33,836 nucleotides of DNA from Candidatus Fraserbacteria bacterium (GCA_037443265.1 JBBIOR010000018.1:1-33836), one strand, 5' to 3'; counted from the stretch's first letter, positions 5,047-33,836 are shown. Made by a program: numbers and translations. Notes: generated from the letters alone by a model not told the origin.

Positions 5047-6368
5047 AGGCATTAAACGGAAAGACGACAGAAGAGCTCATCCTCGAGAAGCACGTAGAAG
5101 CCCTGCGCCGGGGCTTTCACCTCTGGCCCACGCTCGAGTTCGGCAAGATGCCGGCCTTGGGAGATCATCGCTGGACGGCGGATCTGATCTATTCCACGTG
5201 GGTGCAGGCCGAGACGGGAAGGCCACCGGACAACGGGCTTGAGTATCGTGTTGGGAATTCGGGCGGCGGCTTTGACGCGCTCGATTTCAAATTCTTGCCC
5301 GAAGAGGAGTGGCTGCCGGAAGACGCTGAGATTGCTCTTGTGATCCCGCTCAATCGCCGGCCCTTTGATCGAAAGCTTGAGATTCCCATCCCGTGGTACG
5401 GAGCTGGCATGTCTTACGGGTCAATCAGCGAGCAGATCATGCTGGCCCGCGCCAAGGCCGCGCAAGAATGGCGGACGTTCACGTCCACAGGCGAAGGCGG
5501 CTATCCCGAATCGCTCGTTCCATACAAGGAGCACGTGATCACGCAGATTGCCACGGGCATGTTCGGCGTGCGCGAAGAGACCATTCAATACGCCCCCATC
5601 GTCGAGTTCAAATATGCCCAAGGCGCAAAACCCGGCCTAGGCGGACATCTTCTCGGCGACAAGACGACCGCGGCCGTAGCGAAGATCCGCGAGAGCGTGC
5701 CTTGGGTGAGCCTCTTCTCGCCGTTTCCGTTCCACAGCGTCTATTCCGTCGAAGATCACAAGAAGCACATCGATTGGGTCAAGACTGTCAATCCCGCCTC
5801 TCTTGTCTCTGTGAAAGTTTCTACGCCCACGGACATCGACATGGTGGCGGTGGGTAGCTATTACGCGGGCGCACACATCGTGCACATCGATGGCTCCTAT
5901 GGGGGCACGGGGGCTGCGCCGGAGATTGCCAAAAAGAACATCGCCATGCCCATTGAGCTGGCCATCCCCAAGGTGCATCGCCATCTCATCTTGGAGGGGA
6001 TTCGGGATGAGATCGTCGTGATGGCCTCGGGCGGGATTCGCACGGCGTATGATATGGCCAAGGCCATCGCGCTGGGAGCCGACGGCTGCATTCTGGGCAC
6101 GGTGGAGCTGGTGGCCCTAGGCTGCACGAGGTGTAGCAACTGTGAGCGCGGCCGTGGCTGTCCCTTTGGGCTCACGACTACAGACCCGGAGCTTTCTCAG
6201 CTGGTCGATCCCGAGTGGGGAGCCGAACGCCTCAGCCGTCTCTACGAATCGTTTGCATGGCAGCTGCGCGAGATCTTGAGGAGGCTGGGCTTAAAGAGCA
6301 TTCGGGAGCTTCGAGGAAGGACGGATTTGCTCATCTATCGAAAGGGAGGCCCTTATGGCTCAAACTGA
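5043..6368 (+). CDS. FMN-binding glutamate synthase family protein (GltB domain 2)
   Basis: GMSYGSIS, TGEGG, QIATGMFG, KYAQGAKPGLGGHL, SGGIR..KAIALGAD, CTRCSNCERGRGCPFG. ATGA overlap with the previous gene. Confidence 0.92.
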   Translation: MKALNGKTTEELILEKHVEALRRGFHLWPTLEFGKMPALGDHRWTADLIYSTWVQAETGRPPDNGLEYRVGNSGGGFDALDFKFLPEEEWLPEDAEIALVIPLNRRPFDRKLEIPIPWYGAGMSYGSISEQIMLARAKAAQEWRTFTSTGEGGYPESLVPYKEHVITQIATGMFGVREETIQYAPIVEFKYAQGAKPGLGGHLLGDKTTAAVAKIRESVPWVSLFSPFPFHSVYSVEDHKKHIDWVKTVNPASLVSVKVSTPTDIDMVAVGSYYAGAHIVHIDGSYGGTGAAPEIAKKNIAMPIELAIPKVHRHLILEGIRDEIVVMASGGIRTAYDMAKAIALGADGCILGTVELVALGCTRCSNCERGRGCPFGLTTTDPELSQLVDPEWGAERLSRLYESFAWQLREILRRLGLKSIRELRGRTDLLIYRKGGPYGSN

Positions 6369-19859: not shown

Positions 19860-20664
19860 GGCCTACGCCAAGATCAATCTGGGCTTGAAAGTCTTGGGAA
19901 GACGTCCGGATGGCTACCACGGGATTGACACCCTGTTGCAGAGCATCGATCTGGCGGATGAGTTGTTCTTGCAGCCCAGAGCTGCTGCTGAGATCACGCT
20001 GACGATGGAGCCGGATTTGGGCCTCCCCCTTAGAGAAAATCTAGTCATGCAAGCGGCGCGGCTGATCTTGAGAAGGGCAGGCGTGAGGCGGGGGGTGAGC
20101 ATCCATCTGCGCAAGGAGATTCCCGTGGGGGCGGGCTTGGGCGGGGGCAGCAGCGATGCCGCGGCCGTGCTGGCGGGACTCAACGAGCTGTTGGGGTTGG
20201 GCTTTAGCTTAGAAGAGCTCCAAACTATGGGAGTCGAATTGGGCAGCGATGTGCCTTTCTTCTTGCTGGGGGGCCGTTGTCGGGCCCGAGGCCGAGGAGA
20301 GCTCTTGGAGAAGCTTCCCGAAGATCCCTCTTTGGGTGTGATCGTGCTGTTGGTCCCTCCATTTGCGAAAAGCACGCGGGAAGTCTATGAGGCTTTCGAT
20401 CGTCTCGTGCCGCGCACGCTCCCTTCTTTTTATCCCAACGATCTAGAGGCTGCGGCTTTGGAGATTCACCCGGTGCTGTGGGCGTATCGGGCGTATCTCG
20501 AGCGCGCTGGGGTGCCCTTTGGGTTGAGCGGCAGTGGGCCCACGTATTTTGCGCTGCTTCAGGGCAACGTAGAGGAAGGGCGTTTGGCAGGCCAAGTCCG
20601 GGCTGAACTCGGTTGCCGGGTCTTTCTATGTCGACCCACGCTCTGGGGTCATCAGATCGTGTAA
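19840..20664 (+). CDS. ispE: 4-diphosphocytidyl-2-C-methyl-D-erythritol kinase
   Basis: AYAKINLGL, GYH, KEIPVGAGLGGGSSDAA, LGSDVPFF, NDLE, LSGSGPT. GTG19840 start. Confidence 0.95.
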   Translation: MRSLRLRAYAKINLGLKVLGRRPDGYHGIDTLLQSIDLADELFLQPRAAAEITLTMEPDLGLPLRENLVMQAARLILRRAGVRRGVSIHLRKEIPVGAGLGGGSSDAAAVLAGLNELLGLGFSLEELQTMGVELGSDVPFFLLGGRCRARGRGELLEKLPEDPSLGVIVLLVPPFAKSTREVYEAFDRLVPRTLPSFYPNDLEAAALEIHPVLWAYRAYLERAGVPFGLSGSGPTYFALLQGNVEEGRLAGQVRAELGCRVFLCRPTLWGHQIV

Positions 20665-20944
20665 GGAGCAAAAGATGAGTGAGAATCCGACTAGCATGAC
20701 GCCGGCTGACAACCACTTAAATTGGTTCTCGACGAAAGAGTATCGACCCCCTCCTAGAAGGATCATCACACCGATCTGCCTTCCGTGGATGTCATTGAAA
20801 GTGAAGGGAGCTGCTCCCAGGGAACGAAGGCATAGAGACTGTAAGCAAAGTTGTCAGCGATATTGGAAGGATCTACGGGTATCTAAGAAGCCACTGCCTA
20901 CAGCCAACACCGTATTCAGATAGCCGGATGCAACACGCAAAAAG

Positions 20945-20953
20945 TGCTATGAT
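20945..20953 (+). promoter_or_regulatory. extended -10 element upstream of cmk
   Basis: TGcTATGAT, followed by AGGAGA SD and ATG20972. Confidence 0.45.
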
Positions 20954-20971
20954 GCTCACAAGGCAGGAGAT

Positions 20972-21589
20972 ATGAAGATCGCCCTCGACGGAAAGGCGGG
21001 CGCAGGCAAGACGACCATCGGAAAAGCCCTGGCAAAGCATTTCCATTGCACGTTCATCAACACGGGCCTGATGTACCGCGCCGTCGCCTGGGCACTCCAA
21101 CAGGGCTCCTCGCTAGAAGAGATCAAACTTCACCTCGTAGAGGAGGGCAGAATCCTCGTAAACGCTCAGCACTTGGAGGAAGATCAGCTCTATCAACGCA
21201 AGCTTGATCAGCTGGCCTCCCAGATCGCCCGACGAAAAGAAGTGCGCGCTCATCTCATCGCCCTCCAGCGCCAATGGGCCAAGGAAGACGGCGTGGTCAT
21301 GGAAGGTCGTGACATCGGCACCGTCGTCCTTCCAGACGCAGACGTCAAGCTCTACGTGGAAGCTTCTCTCGAAGAGCGAGCCAGACGGCGCACTCTGCAG
21401 CGCCCAGGCACATCATTTGAAGAAATTTTAAAAGGGCTTCGAGAGCGCGACCGGCGCGATCAGGGCTTCGGGCGCCTGCTGCCCGCCCCCGATGCCCTCA
21501 TACTCTCCACCGATGGCAAGACTCCTGAGGAATCCATCGCCGAGGCCATCCGCCTGATCGAGGGGAGCCTCCAGCGGCGCGTTGCATAG
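20972..21589 (+). CDS. cmk: cytidylate kinase (bacterial type)
   Basis: IALDGKAGAGKTT, TGLMYRA, VMEGRDIGTVVLPDA, RDRRD. Confidence 0.95.
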   Translation: MKIALDGKAGAGKTTIGKALAKHFHCTFINTGLMYRAVAWALQQGSSLEEIKLHLVEEGRILVNAQHLEEDQLYQRKLDQLASQIARRKEVRAHLIALQRQWAKEDGVVMEGRDIGTVVLPDADVKLYVEASLEERARRRTLQRPGTSFEEILKGLRERDRRDQGFGRLLPAPDALILSTDGKTPEESIAEAIRLIEGSLQRRVA

Positions 21590-24873: not shown

Positions 24874-25458
24874 ATGTCACTAAAAGCTCTGTTGGAGTTC
24901 GTCCTCTTTGCACTGCTGGCCTATCTGATCGGCTCCATTCCGTTCAGCTGGTTCATAGCCCGGCTGGCCCAAGTCGATTTGCGGCGCGTGGGCAGTGGGA
25001 ACATCGGGGCCACGAATGTGGCCCGTTCGGTGGGCCTGCCCTATGGCCTGCTCGCTCTGATCCTCGATGCCGCCAAGGGGAGCGTCCCGGCGTATCTGGC
25101 CCTGAGCTGGTCTGTGCCCATCTGGCTCTCTGGGTTTGCGGTCATCGGGCACAACTGGAGCGCTTTTTTAAAGTTTCAGGGCGGCAAGGGAGTGGCCACC
25201 TCCTTGGGCATTCTGCTGATGCTCTCCCCTCCCGTTCTTGTGCTCACCCTCACGATCTGGGTTCTTGTGGCCGCTACTACTCGCTATGTGTCGCTGGCCT
25301 CGGTCTGGGCACTGCTTCTTTCGCCTCTTCTTCTGCTGCTTTGGGGAGCTCCTCGGGAAGCGATCCTCTTGATGGCCGCGCTAGGAGCTCTAAGCGCCTT
25401 CCAACACCGATCGAATTTCCGGAGATGGCTTGAGGGAAAGGAGCACAAGCTCAGTTGA
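24874..25458 (+). CDS. plsY: glycerol-3-phosphate acyltransferase PlsY
   Basis: YLIGSIPF, GSGNIGATN, DAAKG, GHNW...GGKGVAT, HRSN. Confidence 0.95.
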   Translation: MSLKALLEFVLFALLAYLIGSIPFSWFIARLAQVDLRRVGSGNIGATNVARSVGLPYGLLALILDAAKGSVPAYLALSWSVPIWLSGFAVIGHNWSAFLKFQGGKGVATSLGILLMLSPPVLVLTLTIWVLVAATTRYVSLASVWALLLSPLLLLLWGAPREAILLMAALGALSAFQHRSNFRRWLEGKEHKLS

Positions 25459-25984
25459 GCTTCGCTACAATGCGCTCCACGATCTCCTCCGGAGTAAGCG
25501 AGGAAGTATCAATCACAAGATCATAGAAAGATCTATCATGCCAATCCAGCTGATAGATCTCCCGATAGCGCTTCTGCTCGGAGTGCTCCCGTTGCAGCAC
25601 CGCTTGACGCACAGCCTCATAATCACTCGTCTTTTCGCGCTGCATAATCCGTCGGATACGAACCCCAAGCGGCGCCTCGAGGAGGACCTTGAGCGCCTCA
25701 ATATGATTCTTATGGGCGAGATATCCCGTAAGACGGCCTTCGAATACGCCCTCAGGCTTTGTGCGCATCAGCTCTAATATTTGGGCATCGAGATCCTGAT
25801 CGATCTTCCAATGGGTCTCCGCCCTTCTTCCCAGCTCCTCGAGTGAGACTCCGGCTTCACGGCTCATCCGGCGGAAGATCTCGCCTGAGGAGAGGTGATC
25901 CAGCCCCAGCTTTTGGGCTAAGAGCGAGGCTACGGTGCTCTTGCCGCTGCCCGGAGGCCCGCTGATCGTGATCCTCTTCTTCAT
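25451..25984 (-). CDS. archaeal-type cytidylate-kinase-like NMP kinase (COG1102)
   Basis: ITISGPPGSGKSTVA, SSGEIFR, IDQDLD, EGRL, RE.SEQKRYREIY, YDLVIDTS. Start ATG25984 (or 25993). Confidence 0.88.
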   Translation of the reverse strand: MKKRITISGPPGSGKSTVASLLAQKLGLDHLSSGEIFRRMSREAGVSLEELGRRAETHWKIDQDLDAQILELMRTKPEGVFEGRLTGYLAHKNHIEALKVLLEAPLGVRIRRIMQREKTSDYEAVRQAVLQREHSEQKRYREIYQLDWHDRSFYDLVIDTSSLTPEEIVERIVAKLN

Positions 25985-26001
25985 CACACCCAACTAAAGC
26001 T

Positions 26002-26868
26002 TTACTCGATGTTTCGGATCTGTTCTCTTAGGCACTCAATATGGTTCTTCATCTCGATGAGCCGCTGGGCGAGCTCGCCGTCGCGGGCCTTGGCGGCCAT
26101 GGTGTTCACCTCGCGGTACATCTCCTGAGCCAGAAAATCGAGCGGTCGACCGGCAGGCTCAGGGCCCTTAAGTGCCTCCTCGGCTGCCCCTAGATGGATC
26201 CTCAAGCGTGCGATCTCTTCAGTGATGTCCGCGCGCTCCGCCCAGAGGGCCACCTCTTGCTCCACCCTCTCGGCGTTGAGCTGGATGTCCGGCTCCAGCG
26301 CGCGAATTCGTTGCTGAAGCCGCTCCCTGTAGAGCCACTTGAGCTGAGTGGCATGAGCTTCCACTTGAGCGAGCGCCTGCTCGAGTGCCCGAAGATGCTG
26401 AGTCAGCTCGGCGGCCAGCGCCTGGCCCTCGCGGCACCGCATCTCCCATGCCGCATCGATGGCCTTCTGAAACGCTTCTTCGAGCACAGGCCATAGGCCC
26501 TCCGGATCCGGAAGGAGCGGCTGGAGCGCGCCTGAAAGCCTCAAGAGATGATCCAGCGAGATGTGCTCATCGAGCCCGAGCTCTTGAGCCAGATGCCGCA
26601 GGGCCTCGTAATGCTGGCGTGCCGTCGCCACGTCGAACGTCAAAGCGGGCCATCCCTCGCGTTGGAGTTGGATGGCTGCCTCTATCCGGCCTCGGCGGAA
26701 GCTCTTGCGGAGCAGTTCCATGGCTCGAAGCTCCAGGGCTTCATAGCCCTCCAGGCCGCGGACTTGGAGATCGAGGTATTTATGATTGAGCGTTTTGATT
26801 TTGACGGAGACGATCCAGCTGTGGCCTTGCGCGGCTCCCTCGCCGTAGCCGGTCATGCTCGTGATCAT
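26002..26868 (-). CDS. yicC: YicC/YloC family endoribonuclease
   Basis: SMTGYG, N(H)KYLD, DITEEIARL, GRPLDFLAQEMYREVNT, LREQIRNIE. Confidence 0.94.
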   Translation of the reverse strand: MITSMTGYGEGAAQGHSWIVSVKIKTLNHKYLDLQVRGLEGYEALELRAMELLRKSFRRGRIEAAIQLQREGWPALTFDVATARQHYEALRHLAQELGLDEHISLDHLLRLSGALQPLLPDPEGLWPVLEEAFQKAIDAAWEMRCREGQALAAELTQHLRALEQALAQVEAHATQLKWLYRERLQQRIRALEPDIQLNAERVEQEVALWAERADITEEIARLRIHLGAAEEALKGPEPAGRPLDFLAQEMYREVNTMAAKARDGELAQRLIEMKNHIECLREQIRNIE

Positions 26869-26876
26869 GTCGGGGA

Positions 26877-26905
26877 ATTATAGATCGTTATGGAGCCAGG
26901 ATCAA
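26877..26905 (-). promoter_or_regulatory. yicC promoter (leaderless-type)
   Basis: Minus strand TTGATC-17-TATAAT, 8 nt before ATG26868. No SD. Confidence 0.7.
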
Positions 26906-27067
26906 AAGAGGAATGAGAAACCGGCGCTATACTCCGGCTGGAGGAATCTCGCGTTCAGGGGCACATTCAATTCCAGTTCGTTAAAGAACTCCAACGAACG
27001 AGGTGGCTAGCGCGCTGGGAGCGAGCAAGACCAAGACACCCAGGGCAGAACCCAGCAGCTTTATCAT

Positions 27068-28064
27068 TCAGGGTTTCTTGAGGAATCCTGGCGGCCAGGG
27101 AAAATCCGCCGGGCAGAGGTCGCCTTTGCCGTTATCGGCAGTTTCATTGTCAAGGCCTTGTATAACCCTTGCCTACTACAGTGATCTGGCTCAGCTCGAC
27201 CAATCCTTGCATGCCAGTGTAGATTTCCATGCCACGGCCATTGCCTATAAAGGAAGACCTCGATACCATGAGTTTTACGCTATGCCCTACCCAGGAAATC
27301 CCGGTCAAGCGATTGCCAGAGAATGTGCTGTCACTAATGTCGATCTCGCTTCCAAAGCCAGCAGTTAAGAGTCCGTGACCGCCATTGCCCGAGATTGTGG
27401 AGTCCTGGAGGGTGATGGAGTCTCCTTCTCTATCGCAACCCCAAACCACCGCTGATCCTCGATTGTTAGCAAGGCGTGAGCGCACAATAGTTAACTTTAC
27501 GCTCGCCCCTTTGAACTCGGGTCCGCTACAGACCAGTCCAGCCCCGTAGCTATCCACGATCTGCAGATCCACTAAGGTAAGAGCCAGTGCCCCTTGGCCA
27601 CGCACCTCTAGTCCATGAGGGCAGATGAACTCCGAGCTCGGCCCCAATGGCGCATAAAAGCAGGGCTGTTCCGCGCTGGCTGGAGGAGCCCCTGCGATCG
27701 TCAGTCCATCGAGTAGCAGCTTCAGCTCCCCTTCCACCTGCAGGGTGATGACTGGCTTGCCTGCTTCGGCCCCTTGCAGGCGCACCAGGTCGCGTCCTGC
27801 CCCCACCAGTCGCAAGCTCTTGCTGATCACCAGGGTCTCGGTGTAGGTTCCCATCTGAATCTGAATCAAGTCTCCTGGGTTGGCAGCGGTTAGGGCTTCT
27901 TGAATCTTGGAGAACTGGCAGAGAGGCGGCCCTTGGGGGCAGACCGACCAGACAGCCGGCAGCGTCGCTTCTTGCTGGTCGTCTTGAGAAAGGGGCCATG
28001 AGGAGACATTCACTCCAGCGAAGGACATCAGTAGTATAAGAGTCAGCTTAAGGTGGCGCATCAT
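27068..28064 (-). pseudogene. secreted right-handed beta-helix protein, copy 3, internally deleted and frameshifted
   Basis: Signal peptide plus VCPQGPPLCQFSKIQEAL from ATG28064; the frame ends at 27150, while the family C-terminus IQGLDNETADNGKGDLCPADFPWPPGFLKKP* lies in another frame (27163-27068). Confidence 0.8.
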
Positions 28065-28083
28065 GCGCGTTCTGCCTGTAGAT

Positions 28084-29319
28084 TTAAGGTGCCTTGATGA
28101 AATTGGGTGGCCAGTTGTAGTCCTCAGGGCACAGATTCCCCTTGCCGTTATCGTGAATTTCATTGTCTTGGCCTTGGATGAAAATGGGAAAAGTGAAAGG
28201 CGGGTCATCCACACAAGGGGAGCGGAATAAGGCGACACCCCACTCTCGGTTCTGCCGGACGATGTTCCTACTCAGCTCAAGAGAGTTGGTGGCTTGGTAG
28301 ACCAGCAAGCCCGAGCCATTCTCTTGAATGAAGTTGTTGCGCAGGCTCATGCGGTTCGCAGTTAAGATCACAAGACCATACTGGCGATTGGCGAAGAAAG
28401 AGGATTCTTCAATGCGCACGACGGAATCTTCTGGCCCTACCCCTAGCAAGAGACTCTCCGTGCCTATGCCGATGTCATTGCCTATGAATCGATTCACGCG
28501 GATCGTCACAGTGCTATCTTTTAGTCCATCGATCGTGGCTCCCCATTGGTTGTGCAGGAACGAGTTGTTCAGTAGGGTGAGCTGTACCTTGCCAGACGGT
28601 ATGACCCTCAGCCCTGTGACATTCCCCAGGAAGCTGCTGTCGATCACGTCGATCACCGCGCCAGGGCTGCTGAAGTTCATGCCGATCAGGTTGCCTGAGA
28701 AGTCGACCTGCTCAACACGGAAGAAGGTCTCTTGAAACCTACAGCTCCAGTTGAATCCTATTCCTCCGTTGGCTGCAACGCGCGAGTTGGTGATCGAAAC
28801 ATAGGCCGAGCCCTGAAAGCGATGGTGAGTTTTGCAGCGAACGCCGTCCACAGCAGCTTGGGTAATATGCACATTCATTAAGCTCAAGACTAAAGATCCT
28901 TGACCAGCAATATAAATCCCGTCAGGACATACCTCTTTGGAATTGGAGCAAGCCGAGTCCCCCCCTTCCGCTGGTGGCCCCCCCAAGATGGTGAGCCCTT
29001 CCAATGTGATACGGAAGTTTTCTTGGACCTCCAGAGTCAGGGTAGGTTGGCCGGGTTGTATTCCCTGGATGCGCACCTGTCCTGCTTCTGTGGCTACCAG
29101 GCGAAGACTCTTGTTAATTTGCAGGTTCTCGCGATAAGTGCCGGCCTGAATGAGAAGGATGTCATCAGAATTGGCGCTATCGATAGCTTCCTGGATCTTG
29201 GAGAATTGGCAGACCGGTGGGCCTTCGGGGCAAATCGTAAGGATCTTAGGCTGCTGGGCTTCCCCGAAGCCACCTAAGAGCATTAGGAAGGTGACAAGTA
29301 AGATGATCCACCGTCTCAT
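28084..29319 (-). CDS. secreted right-handed parallel beta-helix (pectin-lyase-like fold) protein, copy 2
   Basis: Signal peptide MRRWIILL...GEA, ICPEGPPVCQFSKIQEAID, GTYRENL, Asn-ladder repeats, C-terminal NLCPEDYNWPPNF. Confidence 0.85.
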   Translation of the reverse strand: MRRWIILLVTFLMLLGGFGEAQQPKILTICPEGPPVCQFSKIQEAIDSANSDDILLIQAGTYRENLQINKSLRLVATEAGQVRIQGIQPGQPTLTLEVQENFRITLEGLTILGGPPAEGGDSACSNSKEVCPDGIYIAGQGSLVLSLMNVHITQAAVDGVRCKTHHRFQGSAYVSITNSRVAANGGIGFNWSCRFQETFFRVEQVDFSGNLIGMNFSSPGAVIDVIDSSFLGNVTGLRVIPSGKVQLTLLNNSFLHNQWGATIDGLKDSTVTIRVNRFIGNDIGIGTESLLLGVGPEDSVVRIEESSFFANRQYGLVILTANRMSLRNNFIQENGSGLLVYQATNSLELSRNIVRQNREWGVALFRSPCVDDPPFTFPIFIQGQDNEIHDNGKGNLCPEDYNWPPNFIKAP

Positions 29320-29343
29320 GTTCCTCACTCCCCGTCCGCTGTA

Positions 29344-30941
29344 TTAGATCAGACATAACCTTCCTTGACAAGCTGCGGGTATATCTCCGTGTGCGGCGGG
29401 AATCGGGACTTGTAAGGTGGTCGGGGGTGCTGGAGGCTCTGAGGTTGGCGCTACCGCTGCCGTTGGTGAGGGTGGCTCAATCCGACAAGTGGGAAAGCCC
29501 ATGGCTTGGCAGATGCGGAGAGCCTCTGCATCGTCAGTGTCTTTGCTGTAACATGCGATTGAGCCGTCGGATCGGATGATGATGGTAGGAACCCTTGAGA
29601 AGGTCCGGTTACGAACTTGGCCGCAGAGTTGATCTAGAGATCCTTCCTCCGCATTGTCGATGATTTGAATGAGAGACTTCCGGGTTTCAGCACCTGCAAC
29701 CACTCTTGCAATCTGCTGAGCCGCATTTTCAATCTGGCTGATTAGGCGATTTATCTCCTCCACTTTGAGGTAGGGTTCAATAAACCCATAAACTTGGACA
29801 TAGCGGTATACTTGATCACCATTTGGTGATTGAAATGATTTTCCCAAATTTTTATACCCAAAGAAGCTTGGGGCACCGAACCCTGTGTCAAACCTGAGAT
29901 CTTGCCAGCCATTGCTTTGCAACTGGGGATAGATCTGTTGGATGAGCAAGGTAGCTCGTGCAATCGCTTCTAGAGCACCTTCGCCTTCCAAAGAGCCCAT
30001 CCCACCACGTTGAACCGCTTGGTAAGCTGCGGCTGCTAAGTATTGCACTAAAGCGTCGAAATTAGTAACCGTCCCTTTGAACCGATACGCATTCTCGAAG
30101 AGCGTTCGAAGATTGCTGGGGAATGCATACAAGCTGTTCGCGAGCGGCTGTGCTTCCACCAACTTGGCATACGCAAAGATGCCTACCGCACCAAACTGCT
30201 GCATGATCCCCTGCATGAGGGCCGCATCCCCATAGGTTGTCTTGATTGAATGGATGAAGGTGCACACAGCGGTAAGAGCTTCATGCCTGGCCTGTTCCAG
30301 GTCGGTGTGGAGACCGGCATTGACAAGCGTTTGCGCAATGGCATTGATGAAGTTGGTGTAGGCCCTCGATTGATCGGAAGGGATCGGAGGATTGTAGAAG
30401 TTTCTACATTCTACCAGTGAATCGGACCAGATGTACTGGAATGCGTCTGTAACGGCTTGCCGTTCGGCAGCTTGCATCCTTTGCCAGAGATTCCAGAGAT
30501 CTCGCATGGCGTTGATGAAGATGACTGCCAGCGGGTATTGCCATTGCTGGGCTTCTACTTCACCTTCCTCTGCCGTGTTCAAGCGTTGTCCTTCCACAAG
30601 GACTTTATACATTTGCTCCAGTCTCTCAGGCGTCAAATCTTTGGCACCCACTACGAGCAAGCGTCCCTTTGGACCGGACATACCTACGATTCCGCCTAGC
30701 CTTCTCCCCGTTTGAGTTGTTTGCACCGCTTGATTATGGATGGTGGGCGTGTTTCTGGTTGCGCGGTCGAAGGTGACTGCTGGACCTTGGGCGCGGCCTT
30801 CTGCTCCCACTGATAACACAAAGGCTTTGTAAACGGAGCCACCCGCCCATAGTGCTGATAGGGACAGAGATCAAAGGGCGCAAAGCTCAGCTGGCTGCCC
30901 TGCTTCAGTCGCGTGGGCAGAGCACTCACCCGCACCGTCAT
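29344..30941 (-). pseudogene. large Cys-containing protein, module B; 5'-truncated and frameshifted homolog of 32179-33836
   Basis: The ORF at 30941-30696 matches the N-terminal junction of module A (KQGS..CP..YGR..PF); homology continues in the ORF at 30819-29344 (RxTR, GG, TPE, EAQ, GW, EPYL, C..C..RICQ..G..C). Confidence 0.7.
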
Positions 30942-32182
30942 GGGTGGTTTATAACGAAATTGGGGGGCCAGGGGTAATCCTCAGGACACAGGTCTTGTTG
31001 GTTCCCTACCAAGATATTCCCTTCTCCAAATACTTGTAATGCCTGAGAAGCTGAAGTCACAGATATGATTTTGATCCCACAGTCCAGACTTCCTTCTATG
31101 ATGTTCTCTCGCATCTCTAGCAGGGAAGGGGGCTCGTTGGACATAAGGACAGTGATGGCTCGGCGGTTATTTGTAAAGGCATTATCACGAAGGTAGAGAC
31201 GACTTCCTTCACCGACAGAGATGCCCTGAGCGAAGCCCCGAATCTGATTGTTACGGGCTTCTAAGACGGCTTCAGAGGAGGCCGAGAAGATCTGAATTCC
31301 GGTGTTGTGATAGATATCATCCTCAACGCTCTCAAGACCTGGTGGAGGTTCAAAGATATTGTCTAAGAGCACTACCCTGCTACTCGATGAGATGCCCATG
31401 CGAAGGCCAAAGCCGTAGGATTGCAGTGAAAAGCGATTTCCAACGACTAGCACACTGCTGCCGCTGCCTACGCCCAGGGAAGAGAGCTCATTACCTCTAA
31501 ACTCGGCGTGACTGCCCCCAGCAGCTACTAACCCTGAGCTAAAGAAGTATGGACCCTCGGCACCAGCTACACCCACAGGAACATCGAGTCTATTCCCAAA
31601 GAACTCTGCCCACGCTCCATTAACCACTTCGATTGCGCCACCTCCGTATCGCTCATGGGGCAAGACCAGGTCCTCTCTCATGGACAGCCTAGATCTAGGT
31701 CCAAGGACCACGATCGTATTTACCACCCAATCTTGGAAAGTCACTCGCTCGATCGTCACCTCTGCGCTATGAAGCTCACCTGGAAGGACCTGGAGTGCCA
31801 GTTCCGCGAACTTCCATCCGCCAAACTGTGGTGGTTGAGGGGGAATGGGGTTACCTTTGAAAGTGAGGTTTTCGATGCGAATCCCGCGGTTGCGCACCCG
31901 CAGCACCGGCCCATATTCCTCTCGGGCGGTGAGGATCACCTTGTCCCGATCTACACCCTTGATCGTGACAAAGCCGATGTCCACGGTGGCTGCCGTAGGA
32001 TAAGTTCCTGGATGCAAAAGCAGCGTCACGCCCCCCGGATAAGCCGCCTCCAAGGCTGCTTCGAGTGTGGCATACGGACAGCCCTGAGCACAGATCTCCA
32101 GTACTTCTTCCGTGGACCCACCTGCCCCTCTTAGAAGAACAAGAGATCCCATCAGCCACATCAGGCATAAGACTTGTCTCAT
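30938..32182 (-). CDS. secreted right-handed beta-helix protein, copy 1
   Basis: GGAGGTG SD and ATGA overlap with the upstream gene; signal peptide, ICAQGCPYATLEAAL, PGTY, C-terminal DLCPEDYPWPPNF. Confidence 0.85.
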   Translation of the reverse strand: MRQVLCLMWLMGSLVLLRGAGGSTEEVLEICAQGCPYATLEAALEAAYPGGVTLLLHPGTYPTAATVDIGFVTIKGVDRDKVILTAREEYGPVLRVRNRGIRIENLTFKGNPIPPQPPQFGGWKFAELALQVLPGELHSAEVTIERVTFQDWVVNTIVVLGPRSRLSMREDLVLPHERYGGGAIEVVNGAWAEFFGNRLDVPVGVAGAEGPYFFSSGLVAAGGSHAEFRGNELSSLGVGSGSSVLVVGNRFSLQSYGFGLRMGISSSSRVVLLDNIFEPPPGLESVEDDIYHNTGIQIFSASSEAVLEARNNQIRGFAQGISVGEGSRLYLRDNAFTNNRRAITVLMSNEPPSLLEMRENIIEGSLDCGIKIISVTSASQALQVFGEGNILVGNQQDLCPEDYPWPPNFVINHP

Positions 32183-33836
32183 CTGCCTTTCACCTCCAAG
32201 CCCAGCAGTCGAACACCATGAGGATTGGCCTTGGGCCCAGGAGCTGAGATCATATAGTCAGTGAAGTAGCCACCACCACCTCCGCCTTCGACTCCGCTGC
32301 TACATAGCCCTTGCTCTTGGCAGATTCGCTGTGCATCATCATACGAAATGTTGGGCGTATGGCAAACGACTTGTCCTCCTTGGACTACCATAACGGGTGC
32401 ACGCTGGGAAGCATTCTGGACGTACGAGTCGTTGCATACCTGAGTAGGATCTGCCCCGGCTGCCAACTGGCTGATGGAGACGACTACCACACGCCAAGCG
32501 TCCAAGGTTCCTGTCTCATACAAGGTAAAGAGTGATGCGGAGGCGAACGTGATGGCCTGTAATACCCTAGCGATAAGCGTATTTAGATCTCGAGGATTTT
32601 GAGCGAATGACTCCAGGTACGGTTCGAGGATTGTATAAGCAGCTACCTGGCACGTCCCACAGTACTCTAAGCCCGTGATTTGCCTCTTGGCAACCAGATC
32701 AACCCCAATCCCGTTATAGGGCAGACCTCCTCCTATCTCTTGCGTTGGAACTCCAAGCCTCTTGATGACCCAACCGCGCTGGATGAGATCCGAGGCGAGC
32801 TTGAAGGTCCCCAAGGCACGTGTGAGCAGTTCGCGGGCTTGCTCAGCTGGTGGTTCTCCCAAGGCCTTACCTACCAGCCCGGCCAAGAGCACGATGAGCG
32901 CATAGGCATCTGTCACCGCTCGGCTGCCCGGGATCAGACGGGGCAGAAGATCCGCAAAGACTTTGACCATCTGGCTTCCTGAGATCGCTGGATAGCGTGG
33001 ATCTTGAATTACTTGCCCCAGGTAAGCGTCCAACAGGAGAGGCACACTCAAGGCCGTAGATCCCAAGTGGTAAACCGTCACCCCAACATCCAGGTTTTGA
33101 TTCTTGTAGTAGGAGAAGATCTGCTGCAACAGGCTGATAAATTCCGAGTCATCTTTGACGTTTTGAGTTTGAGAGCGATTCGCTGCAAGGATCCCAGCCT
33201 TGATCCATAGCTCCCTGACACCTTGCAAGAATGACTCTAATCTACTGCTTGAGATCACCGCACTTTCCAGACGCGCCCTAAAGTCTGTGGCTTGTTGCAG
33301 CTCTTGAAGGATTCCCAAGAGATTCTGTGACTCTACAGTATCTCTAGAGCTTATCCAGCCAAGAATGCCACTAACAATCACATCGCAGATAGCGCTCGCC
33401 ACCATGGTAGGGACAAGATTGCAGAGCAGGCTGATGTCGAGCCCTTGAGCTTCCAGCCCCTGGGTCCCTAATTCTCCGTTCTGCTGATAGAGCGCTTGGG
33501 CCAGCTCGGGAGTTATAGTCTGGAAGCCAGCGAGCACCAAAGCCCTATCCTTGTTTCTTAAGACAGCCACTCCCCCCTTTGGAAGATTCAAAGTGGTAGT
33601 CAGGACAGCACTGACGGCCGCATAAGAGTTTGCTAGTGTGCGGGTGCTGCGTTCGACCGTCCAGGGCAAGGTCCACCCTTGACAGAGAGCTTTGCCAAAG
33701 GGTTGGATTCTCCCATAGTAGTGGAAGGGGCAGAAGTTGTAATCCAGATTCTGTTTCAGTTCGCTGCCCTGCTTCACCACCGGCTGCACCTCTTTCCGCT
33801 CTGGAGTAGGCCTGACAATCTGCAGCTTGGGCCTCG
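32179..33836 (-). CDS. large hypothetical Cys-containing protein, module A (5' partial; frame open to the window edge)
   Basis: No stop upstream of GTG33789 (RPKLQIVRPTPERKE...). At least 550 aa; homologous to module B along its visible length. Confidence 0.8.
   Translation of the reverse strand, partial: RPKLQIVRPTPERKEVQPVVKQGSELKQNLDYNFCPFHYYGRIQPFGKALCQGWTLPWTVERSTRTLANSYAAVSAVLTTTLNLPKGGVAVLRNKDRALVLAGFQTITPELAQALYQQNGELGTQGLEAQGLDISLLCNLVPTMVASAICDVIVSGILGWISSRDTVESQNLLGILQELQQATDFRARLESAVISSSRLESFLQGVRELWIKAGILAANRSQTQNVKDDSEFISLLQQIFSYYKNQNLDVGVTVYHLGSTALSVPLLLDAYLGQVIQDPRYPAISGSQMVKVFADLLPRLIPGSRAVTDAYALIVLLAGLVGKALGEPPAEQARELLTRALGTFKLASDLIQRGWVIKRLGVPTQEIGGGLPYNGIGVDLVAKRQITGLEYCGTCQVAAYTILEPYLESFAQNPRDLNTLIARVLQAITFASASLFTLYETGTLDAWRVVVVSISQLAAGADPTQVCNDSYVQNASQRAPVMVVQGGQVVCHTPNISYDDAQRICQEQGLCSSGVEGGGGGGYFTDYMISAPGPKANPHGVRLLGLEVKGR

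Follow-up and report, generated by a model that had tools for sequence, protein, structure and literature searches.

The window, a stretch of 33,836 nt that makes up one complete contig (G000:C18) of the Candidatus Fraserbacteria bacterium genome G000, carries on its minus strand an array of genes for large variable proteins (A and B) and for beta-helix proteins (H1, H2 and H3). A sequence-only reading had taken this array for a polymorphic cassette system, an assignment that is well supported by the sequence comparison with related genomes. The minus-strand order proposed there, A, H1, B, H2 and H3, was confirmed by the coordinates of the open reading frames (ORFs); A is open at its 5' end, B is 5'-truncated and frameshifted, and H3 is decayed. 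The features of the array are:

33753-33836, minus strand: conserved junction DNA, 97.6-98% identical to the paralogue at C1:1-84; the likeness ends where the head begins
32179-33834 (to 33836, the contig end), minus strand: gene A, 551 amino acids (aa), an ORF open at the contig end
32305-32817, minus strand: alpha/beta domain of A, residues ~340-510, with a modelled PD-(D/E)xK-like topology and the motif D...E-P-Y, no Lys
30938-32182, minus strand: H1, secreted right-handed beta-helix partner of A, 414 aa (ORF, Pfam)
30696-30941, minus strand: B, first piece, 81 aa, beginning at the H1 stop (ATGA), with a KQGS..CPY..YGR motif
29344-30819, minus strand: B, main piece, 491 aa, in a frame that differs from that of the first piece
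28084-29328, minus strand: H2, intact beta-helix after the broken B, 414 aa (ORF, Pfam)
27071-28238 (ORF 27150-28238), minus strand: H3, decayed beta-helix, ORF of 362 aa
26900-27163, minus strand: conserved 3' flank of the array, with 77-98% DNA identity to C1, C20, C15 and C9; it holds a remnant of the small gene S

The visible part of A comprises the end of a Pro-rich linker, the junction motif VKQGSEL and a variable head of ~520 aa; the contig ends inside the gene because the sequence upstream is repeated in the genome. H1 has a hydrophobic, signal-like segment at its N-terminus and a DLCPEDYPWPPNF tail at its C-terminus. In agreement with the proposed coupling of A to H1 and of H1 to B, both ATGA overlaps follow from the coordinates: the stop codon TGA of A overlaps the start of H1 as ATGA, and the H1/B overlap was also read directly in the sequence. 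The region is lower in GC than the rest of the window, as had been noted, with 0.515-0.555 in five 1-kb intervals (28001-33000) against 0.564-0.637 in 27 intervals (1-27000). H1, H2 and H3 match Pfam Beta_helix above the cut-off (E values of 2.7e-10, 2.3e-12 and 8.2e-8), and A and B are without any Pfam match above the cut-off. H3 covers only positions 7-270 of a helix profile of ~375 positions (profile A5), and its C-terminal CP.DY.WPP piece sits in another frame, at 27071-27163.

A and B share the motifs that the sequence-only reading had listed for both ends, and are ~21% identical overall. B begins directly at the stop of H1, 12 codons ahead of its KQGS motif, and hence is without signal peptide, N-domain and linker. 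Its earlier description as a truncated homolog of A holds for the 5' end, but B is more than truncated: comparison with intact relatives points to the loss of one base near 30777-30781, which breaks its frame. Summed over contigs, the depth of the source run is ~3- to 5-fold higher over 30795-31029, which spans the end of H1 and the start of B, and over 26800-27034 in the 3' flank; these two conserved stretches are also present on other contigs of the sample. Loose ends are seen at 30777/30780, where other contigs of the sample continue like the intact relative of B.

The N-terminus of A lies beyond the contig end, and its lipoprotein status is taken from homologues. A close relative found in a word-based search, P0001 (857 aa, 61% identical over 99% of A), has a lipoprotein signal with a lipobox, an N-domain of ~300 aa and a Pro-rich linker, followed by the part visible in A. 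A profile built from 22 family members and run against 1.84 billion proteins retrieved 196 representatives at E <= 0.001, of which 75 reach E <= 1e-30, so that the family now counts 196 unnamed representatives. The full-length members consist of a signal peptide with lipobox, an N-domain of ~290-300 aa, a Pro-rich linker and a variable head of ~500 aa, in line with the signal peptide or delivery domain expected on A by the sequence-only reading. Signal peptides and lipoboxes, as well as the barrel nature of S discussed below, were judged by simple patterns or by eye; a crude lipobox pattern was positive in 32 of the 150 listed representatives, the remainder being mostly fragments. At least six intact full-length copies with lipoboxes, and two more with in-frame stops, are found in the related genome G001, and a lipobox is also present at the end of contig C17 in the window's own genome. 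In more distant members the N-domain is replaced by arrays of immunoglobulin (Ig)-like domains (HYDIN/VesB-like, ASH, DUF1573), which are present in 16 of 24 long members scanned; one more has PKD.

Starts of A-family genes with lipoboxes (ILTGC, LVSGC) lie at G000:C17 37823-38137 (plus strand) and G000:C8 1-173 (minus strand). In the C8 copy the signal peptide is followed immediately, and in a different frame, by a more distal part of the N-domain, for which a deletion or an assembly chimera is possible.

No family for the head or the N-domain was found in Pfam (searched with 6 + 22 + 24 + 22 proteins), NCBIfam or PADLOC, which agrees with the earlier failure to recognise a named family for A or B, and the titles and abstracts retrieved in literature searches contain no description of an A/helix family. 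A family match is present in 20 of the 184 genomes of the phylum, all of them in families f1, f3, f4 and f5 of one order, and in none of the 149 genomes of six families outside that order. By sequence, A and B thus belong to an unnamed family that is confined to one order among the genomes searched, and the lineage specificity suggested before was upheld. All results are comparisons of metagenome bins, and kin genomes among these are not independent.

To what extent the family is tied to beta-helix genes can be read from 42 A units mapped in 16 genomes, of which 41 are assessable (L023 runs off its contig). A helix gene follows directly downstream on the same strand in 37 of these 41 units, the four others being L027b, L029, the first A of L041, and L048. 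The pairing of A-like with beta-helix genes, which the sequence-only reading had proposed to test in related genomes, is found in most units, and the adjacency extends to the distant members with Ig-like arrays at their N-termini. The partner had been described as an exported beta-helix of ~410 aa; H1 and H2 have 414 aa each, and an N-terminal hydrophobic, signal-like segment is present in 26 of 28 helix proteins.

Further copies occur in the window's own genome, almost all of them at contig ends. The order on C1 is A', helix, a 5'-cut B', helix and a decayed S, and on C15 it is A'', helix and S; pieces of helix genes are found on C11, C20 and C36. As contigs break in the repeated N-domain, such genomes assemble badly. 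Internal copies that have lost their 5' part start at different profile positions (window B at 272, C1 B' at 207, L021a at 256, L027b at 77, and the L031 copy at 6053 at 564). A helix gene stands behind the 5'-cut pieces of the window (B and H2), of C1 (B'), of L021a in G001 and of L031 in G010, and none was found behind the 5'-cut L027b of G001. Broken A genes are likewise followed by an intact helix in the window (B) and in G001 at L021b (TAG) and L024 (TGA); L027b is broken as well (TAG and a frame change), and the A genes of L030 and L033 are split into overlapping frames. Runs of helix genes alone are formed by H2-H3 in the window and occur at L032 and L031.

At L032 (G010:C14 1785-5882) and L031 (G010:C5), three to five successive beta-helix ORFs or pieces follow each other with no intervening A. 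Single in-frame stops lie within the N-domain in G001 at L021 10950-10952 (TAG), L024 7526-7528 (TGA) and L027 3788-3790 (TAG), and these three may represent recent inactivation or an on/off variation.

The arrays are closed by the small gene S, which encodes 142-151 aa with an N-terminal signal-like segment and a C-terminal ..VSLRF, and belongs to no family. By eye, the ..VSLRF end resembles an outer-membrane beta-signal. Intact copies of S are located at:

38319-38744 of G000:C15, minus strand
2049-2501 of L028 (G001)
6226-6678 of L020 (G001)
1765-2217 of L024 (G001)

The intact copies are 75-90% identical at the aa level between modules and genera, and diverged or decayed copies 48-62%; the intact S is at least as conserved as the housekeeping proteins of both genera (61-86%). 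In the window, a tblastn search with S found only the last ~40 codons, at 26905-27033 on the minus strand, within the conserved 3' flank.

With G000 being a bin of 44 contigs and 88% completeness, with many copies at contig ends and several of them bearing stops or frameshifts, one may ask whether there is a system at all, or just decaying paralogous hypothetical genes with junctions and truncations produced by metagenome mis-assembly. However, 16 genomes that were assembled separately show the same architecture, and an independent assembly of the source reads is letter-identical to the window over two stretches, H2 with B and H1 with A, one Logan contig (28189-30809) reproducing the frame of B. 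Considering also the 75 representatives at E <= 1e-30 and the confident models of the head and the N-domain (pLDDT 79.7 and 80.6), we regard an artefact as very improbable.

Evidence for an exchange of cassettes comes from the boundary between the conserved and the variable part of A. The window A and the A' of C1 share 84 nt at 97.6% identity, after which DNA similarity ceases; within G001, L020 and L028b share 315 nt at 98.4% identity, again followed by no DNA similarity. Both sharp junctions fall at the motif VKxGxEL. Among the G001 paralogues the N-domains are 63-79% identical, whereas the C-regions reach only 28-32%, and the first 105 aa show a mean identity of 73% among eight G001 paralogues versus 50% between G000 and G001. 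The same head types, on the other hand, recur across the two genera at 55-86% identity and their helix partners at 49-79%; H1 is 75-76% identical to its counterpart behind the A-type gene of G001. Housekeeping proteins reach 61-86% identity between the genera. The fact that the N-domains of paralogues are alike within a genome, while heads and helices of one type are alike across genera, indicates concerted evolution of the N-domain and old head-plus-helix types common to both genera. The arrays also have conserved DNA on either side. For 15 of 20 modules, head and helix had their best matches in one and the same module, and the site beside yicC/plsY carries other cassette types in G001 than in the window. 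Taken together, the comparison makes cassette exchange as such probable. The sharp junctions, the concerted N-domain, the adjacency in 37 of 41 units and the 5'-cut copies also substantiate the layout suggested at the outset, a full-length gene with its partner followed by N-truncated variant cassettes with theirs.

From these data a unit can be proposed that would comprise an outer-membrane-type lipoprotein with an exchangeable head, a translationally coupled helix that diverges in step with the head, and a terminal S. A new head-plus-helix cassette would be placed behind the expressed N-domain by homologous recombination, for which N-domain and linker would serve as the conserved 5' part and S with its flank as the conserved 3' part. 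The older cassette would be shifted downstream, lose its export signal and decay, as B may have done, and its helix gene could remain intact, as in H2. Head and helix would form a cognate pair that works at the cell surface, outside the cytoplasm, most likely for discrimination or antagonism between related cells by the logic of SitA, contact-dependent growth inhibition (CDI) and Rhs, with the helix as an extracytoplasmic escort or protector and not a classical cytosolic immunity protein. If exchange is granted, a function in conflict or recognition has, in our estimate, an even to slightly better than even chance; the statement as a whole, with head and helix as an exchangeable pair at the surface that serves discrimination or antagonism, we consider evenly balanced.

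The head was further analysed by structure prediction. The AlphaFold2 model of A (predicted local distance difference test, pLDDT, 79.7; predicted template modelling score, pTM, 0.69) consists of helices up to residue ~352 and an alpha/beta domain at residues 356-507, whose strand and helix order is that of PD-(D/E)xK nucleases. As modelled, the head begins with a helical region, continues with the PD-(D/E)xK-like domain and ends in a Cys-rich tail. For A residues ~280-515, the fold comparison VIA returned mainly PD-(D/E)xK-fold nucleases at Z 4.8-7.1 with Rossmann-type rows mixed in, among them Upx (7.1), FokI (6.9), BspD6I (6.6), NucS (6.0) and the CdiA-CT toxin 4g6u (5.7); two further CdiA-CT toxins, 4g6v and 4zqu, were also matched. 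Foldseek, which the sequence-only reading had recommended for A, gave nothing at E <= 0.001 with the A model against pdb and viral structures, nor with the N-domain model against pdb. Among PDB sequences the family profile matched nothing but designed helical bundles (E >= 0.0012), and the ESM Atlas offered no usable match for A, the top score being 0.75. From the model, a PD-(D/E)xK-like fold in the head is likely.

The expected catalytic site splits three ways, into D..(E/Q)xK, D..E-P-(Y/F) and RGD..C, in an alignment of 88 rows inspected by eye. The canonical motif is present in C1 A', L021b, L026, P0046, P0072, P0083, P0095 and P0012. The window A has D...E-P-Y and the window B ...E-P-Y, and the catalytic Lys is absent from both; judged by these motifs, enzyme activity of A and B is doubtful. 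P0083 additionally gave a weak Pfam match to HSDR_N_2 (E 5.9e-4, below the cut-off). The model of the N-domain (pLDDT 80.6) shows two small alpha+beta modules, whose best VIA score, Z 5.0 to cystatin/PepSY-like small alpha+beta domains, is not decisive. A pore-forming head was also considered and rejected, as no conserved hydrophobic hairpin recurs in the helical region across 23 sampled members. A complex prediction of the A head with H1, with alignments supplied for each, gave scores of 0.00, 0.37 and 0.27 against a mark of 0.32 and was not used either way.

These features bear on a classical polymorphic toxin/immunity system, in which an outer-membrane lipoprotein would carry an entry domain and a PD-(D/E)xK nuclease head, be passed to neighbours, and be countered by the helix as immunity protein. 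Such a system would account for the conserved N-part, the sharp junction, the variable C-part, the co-varying downstream gene and the 5'-cut orphans with intact partners. It would also fit the three CdiA-CT toxins among the fold matches, the weak HSDR_N_2 match of P0083 and the canonical D..ExK motif, which is kept across very diverged paralogues. A precedent exists in SitA of myxobacteria, lipoprotein toxins with a predicted beta-barrel helper (PMC5562445). A nuclease, however, acts in the cytoplasm, while 26 of the 28 partners have a signal-like N-terminal segment, and a large beta-helix with such a segment fits badly with immunity to a cytoplasm-acting toxin. The partner is moreover ten times the usual size of an immunity protein and looks like a carbohydrate-active beta-helix. 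Also, the Lys of the motif is missing in the window A and B, neither Tox-REase nor any other toxin family was found by sequence, and the heads form one homologous family. A toxin/immunity system of the classical type hence appears distinctly unlikely. Of the earlier suggestion of toxin/immunity-like or antigenic-variation cassettes, the structural half is supported, and the functional half stays a conjecture: no toxin family was found, the one toxin-like trait is the PD-(D/E)xK-like fold at Z 5-7, the Lys is absent from A and B, the heads are homologous and the partner is nearest to carbohydrate-active beta-helices.

The beta-helix partner matches Beta_helix and not any immunity family in Pfam. 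In profile searches its closest matches are the polysaccharide lyase family 6 (PL6) alginate lyases 7dmk and 5gkd (E 2.7e-17 and 5.6e-16), the CE8 pectinesterase 3uw0 (3.9e-13), NosD (7o0y, 3.2e-10) and mannuronan C5-epimerases (AlgE/AlgG). The likeness to PL6 lies mostly in the N-terminal cap and in generic repeats. The Arg mutated by the depositors of the PL6 lyase 5gkq, which we take to be catalytic from the entry title, aligns with a position that is not conserved in the helix profile. For the NosD family TIGR04247 the helices score 27.8-52.4 bits, with the cut-off at 300 bits. The helix partners thus share the N-terminal cap motif and PbH1-type repeats with PL6, CE8, NosD, AlgE and AlgG proteins (Pfam Beta_helix, NosD), but only in the present helix family is the C-terminus an invariant DLCP.DYPWPP.FIK.P tail and pairing with A obligatory.

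On this basis the modules could also be directed at glycans, with the helix binding or cleaving a polysaccharide and the lipoprotein head anchoring or presenting the helix. The old types would then be specialisations for different glycans (those of food, of the matrix around the cell itself, or of partner or prey cell surfaces), and the truncations a result of decay and unequal recombination between paralogues. The profile matches to PL6, pectinesterase, NosD and mannuronan C5-epimerases speak for it, as do the stability of the types between genera at housekeeping-like identity, the Ig-like stalks of distant members (16 of the 24 long members scanned), which are as in surface proteins, and the many full-length copies in one genome (at least six intact ones with lipoboxes in G001). 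Such a role would, however, leave the sharp junctions, the concerted N-domain, the conserved array ends and the helix-only arrays unexplained. The unconserved Arg position, the restriction of the similarity to cap and generic repeats, and NosD scores far under the cut-off are further points against it, and no transporters or sugar-use genes flank the modules inspected. We hold a glycan-directed function to be unlikely, though not negligible.

Several observations weigh against an exchangeable pair used in discrimination or antagonism. The co-inheritance of head and helix is expected from linkage alone and is no proof of cognate binding, and toxicity, binding and exchange are proposed from comparison only. 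Between genera the head types differ by about as much as housekeeping proteins do, so that there is no sign of a fast arms-race turnover within a type, and with only 70-82% identity in the N-domain DNA of the G001 paralogues, homogenisation is not always recent. In the same Pfam, NCBIfam and PADLOC searches, no known toxin, immunity or delivery family matches. All VIA fold matches of the head lie below Z 8, the tool's own mark for a decisive match, and most members probably have lost or changed a nuclease activity, if it was ever present. The homologous heads are unlike the tips of CDI, Rhs and SitA proteins, which carry unrelated toxin folds. A signal-like partner of ~400 aa nearest to PL6, CE8, C5-epimerases and NosD would suggest glycan chemistry as much as protection. 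The probabilities given for the individual explanations reflect that the heads are one homologous architecture without a recognisable toxin family, and that they are paired with a large beta-helix whose N-terminus is signal-like.

In its architecture and presumed exchange the array follows the logic of the orphan arrays of CDI and Rhs, and most closely that of SitBAI of Myxococcus. In the CDI and Rhs proteins the conserved N-part meets the variable C-part at a short conserved motif, VENN or PxxxxDPxGL, a place taken by VKxGxEL in the A family. The 5'-truncated downstream copies retain some of the conserved part and the partner gene, as the orphan toxin/immunity modules of CDI and Rhs loci reportedly do (Poole et al. 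2011, PLoS Genet, PMC3150448; Koskiniemi et al. 2014, PLoS Genet, PMC3967940), and exchange by homologous recombination is likewise suggested. In contrast to these systems, export would proceed by a lipoprotein signal, the partner is large with a signal-like N-terminus, and there is no recognised toxin domain. Parts such as CdiB/two-partner secretion (TPS), YD repeats, PAAR and type VI secretion system (T6SS) components are absent; these known delivery modules, together with LXG and type VII secretion system (T7SS) components, were found neither by Pfam in 22 + 24 + 22 members nor in the flanks read.

In SitBAI, a lipoprotein whose N-part is conserved and whose tips vary is reported to be encoded in overlap with a partner and to come with SitB, a helper predicted to be a beta-barrel (Vassallo et al. 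2017, eLife, PMC5562445); its lipoprotein toxin cassettes are also treated in a later report (Vassallo et al. 2021, mBio, PMC8546572). Compared by architecture, both systems have an outer-membrane-type lipoprotein with a family-conserved N-region and a variable C-region, a linked, overlapping partner gene, and many copies per genome within a single order. Both include a small accessory protein, SitB with a type I signal and a predicted beta-barrel, and S, whose barrel was judged by eye only. One SitA tip is described as homologous to the CdiA-CT tRNase of B. pseudomallei, a fold (4g6v) that is among the weak matches of the head. The two systems differ, according to the same accounts, in that SitI belongs to immunity families such as SUKH, whereas the partner of A is a beta-helix of ~400 aa with a signal-like N-terminus; in that the SitA tips are unrelated toxin domains, whereas the heads share one homologous architecture of ~500 aa; and in that SitB lies upstream and S downstream.

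A more far-reaching proposal would be a new kin-discrimination or antagonism system of an uncultivated diderm lineage, with exchangeable effector heads on outer-membrane lipoproteins and both self-protection and specificity provided, outside the cytoplasm, by the cognate secreted beta-helix. We put this forward tentatively, as possible though on balance rather unlikely. If true, it would represent a new class of effector and partner, and SitA-like lipoprotein warfare would have arisen a second time, independently, outside the myxobacteria. If the reading of the array as an exchangeable pair holds, the cassette-swapping logic of CDI, Rhs and SitA also runs on entirely different parts, an unnamed lipoprotein family and a beta-helix partner, in a subsurface lineage that is little known and has a small genome (1.7 Mb in the 88%-complete bin). 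Head and helix would also constitute a testable protein pair, the questions being whether cognate heads and helices bind each other and whether the head serves as a nuclease or as a ligand.

In a search of sequencing runs, only the probable source run contains the stretch, and no RNA run is listed as holding it. At L028 in G001 (G001:C11, 8591-12283), a complete A-helix module lies between cmk and an ispE-like gene; the corresponding gap of the window, 20577-21173, is empty, and no remnant of the extra module was found at 20400-21300 by eye or by tblastn. The array in the window is flanked, at 24874-26868, by plsY (plus strand), a cytidylate-kinase-like gene (minus strand) and yicC (minus strand), and the same gene order is found beside the C11 array of G001, with 61-69% protein identity.

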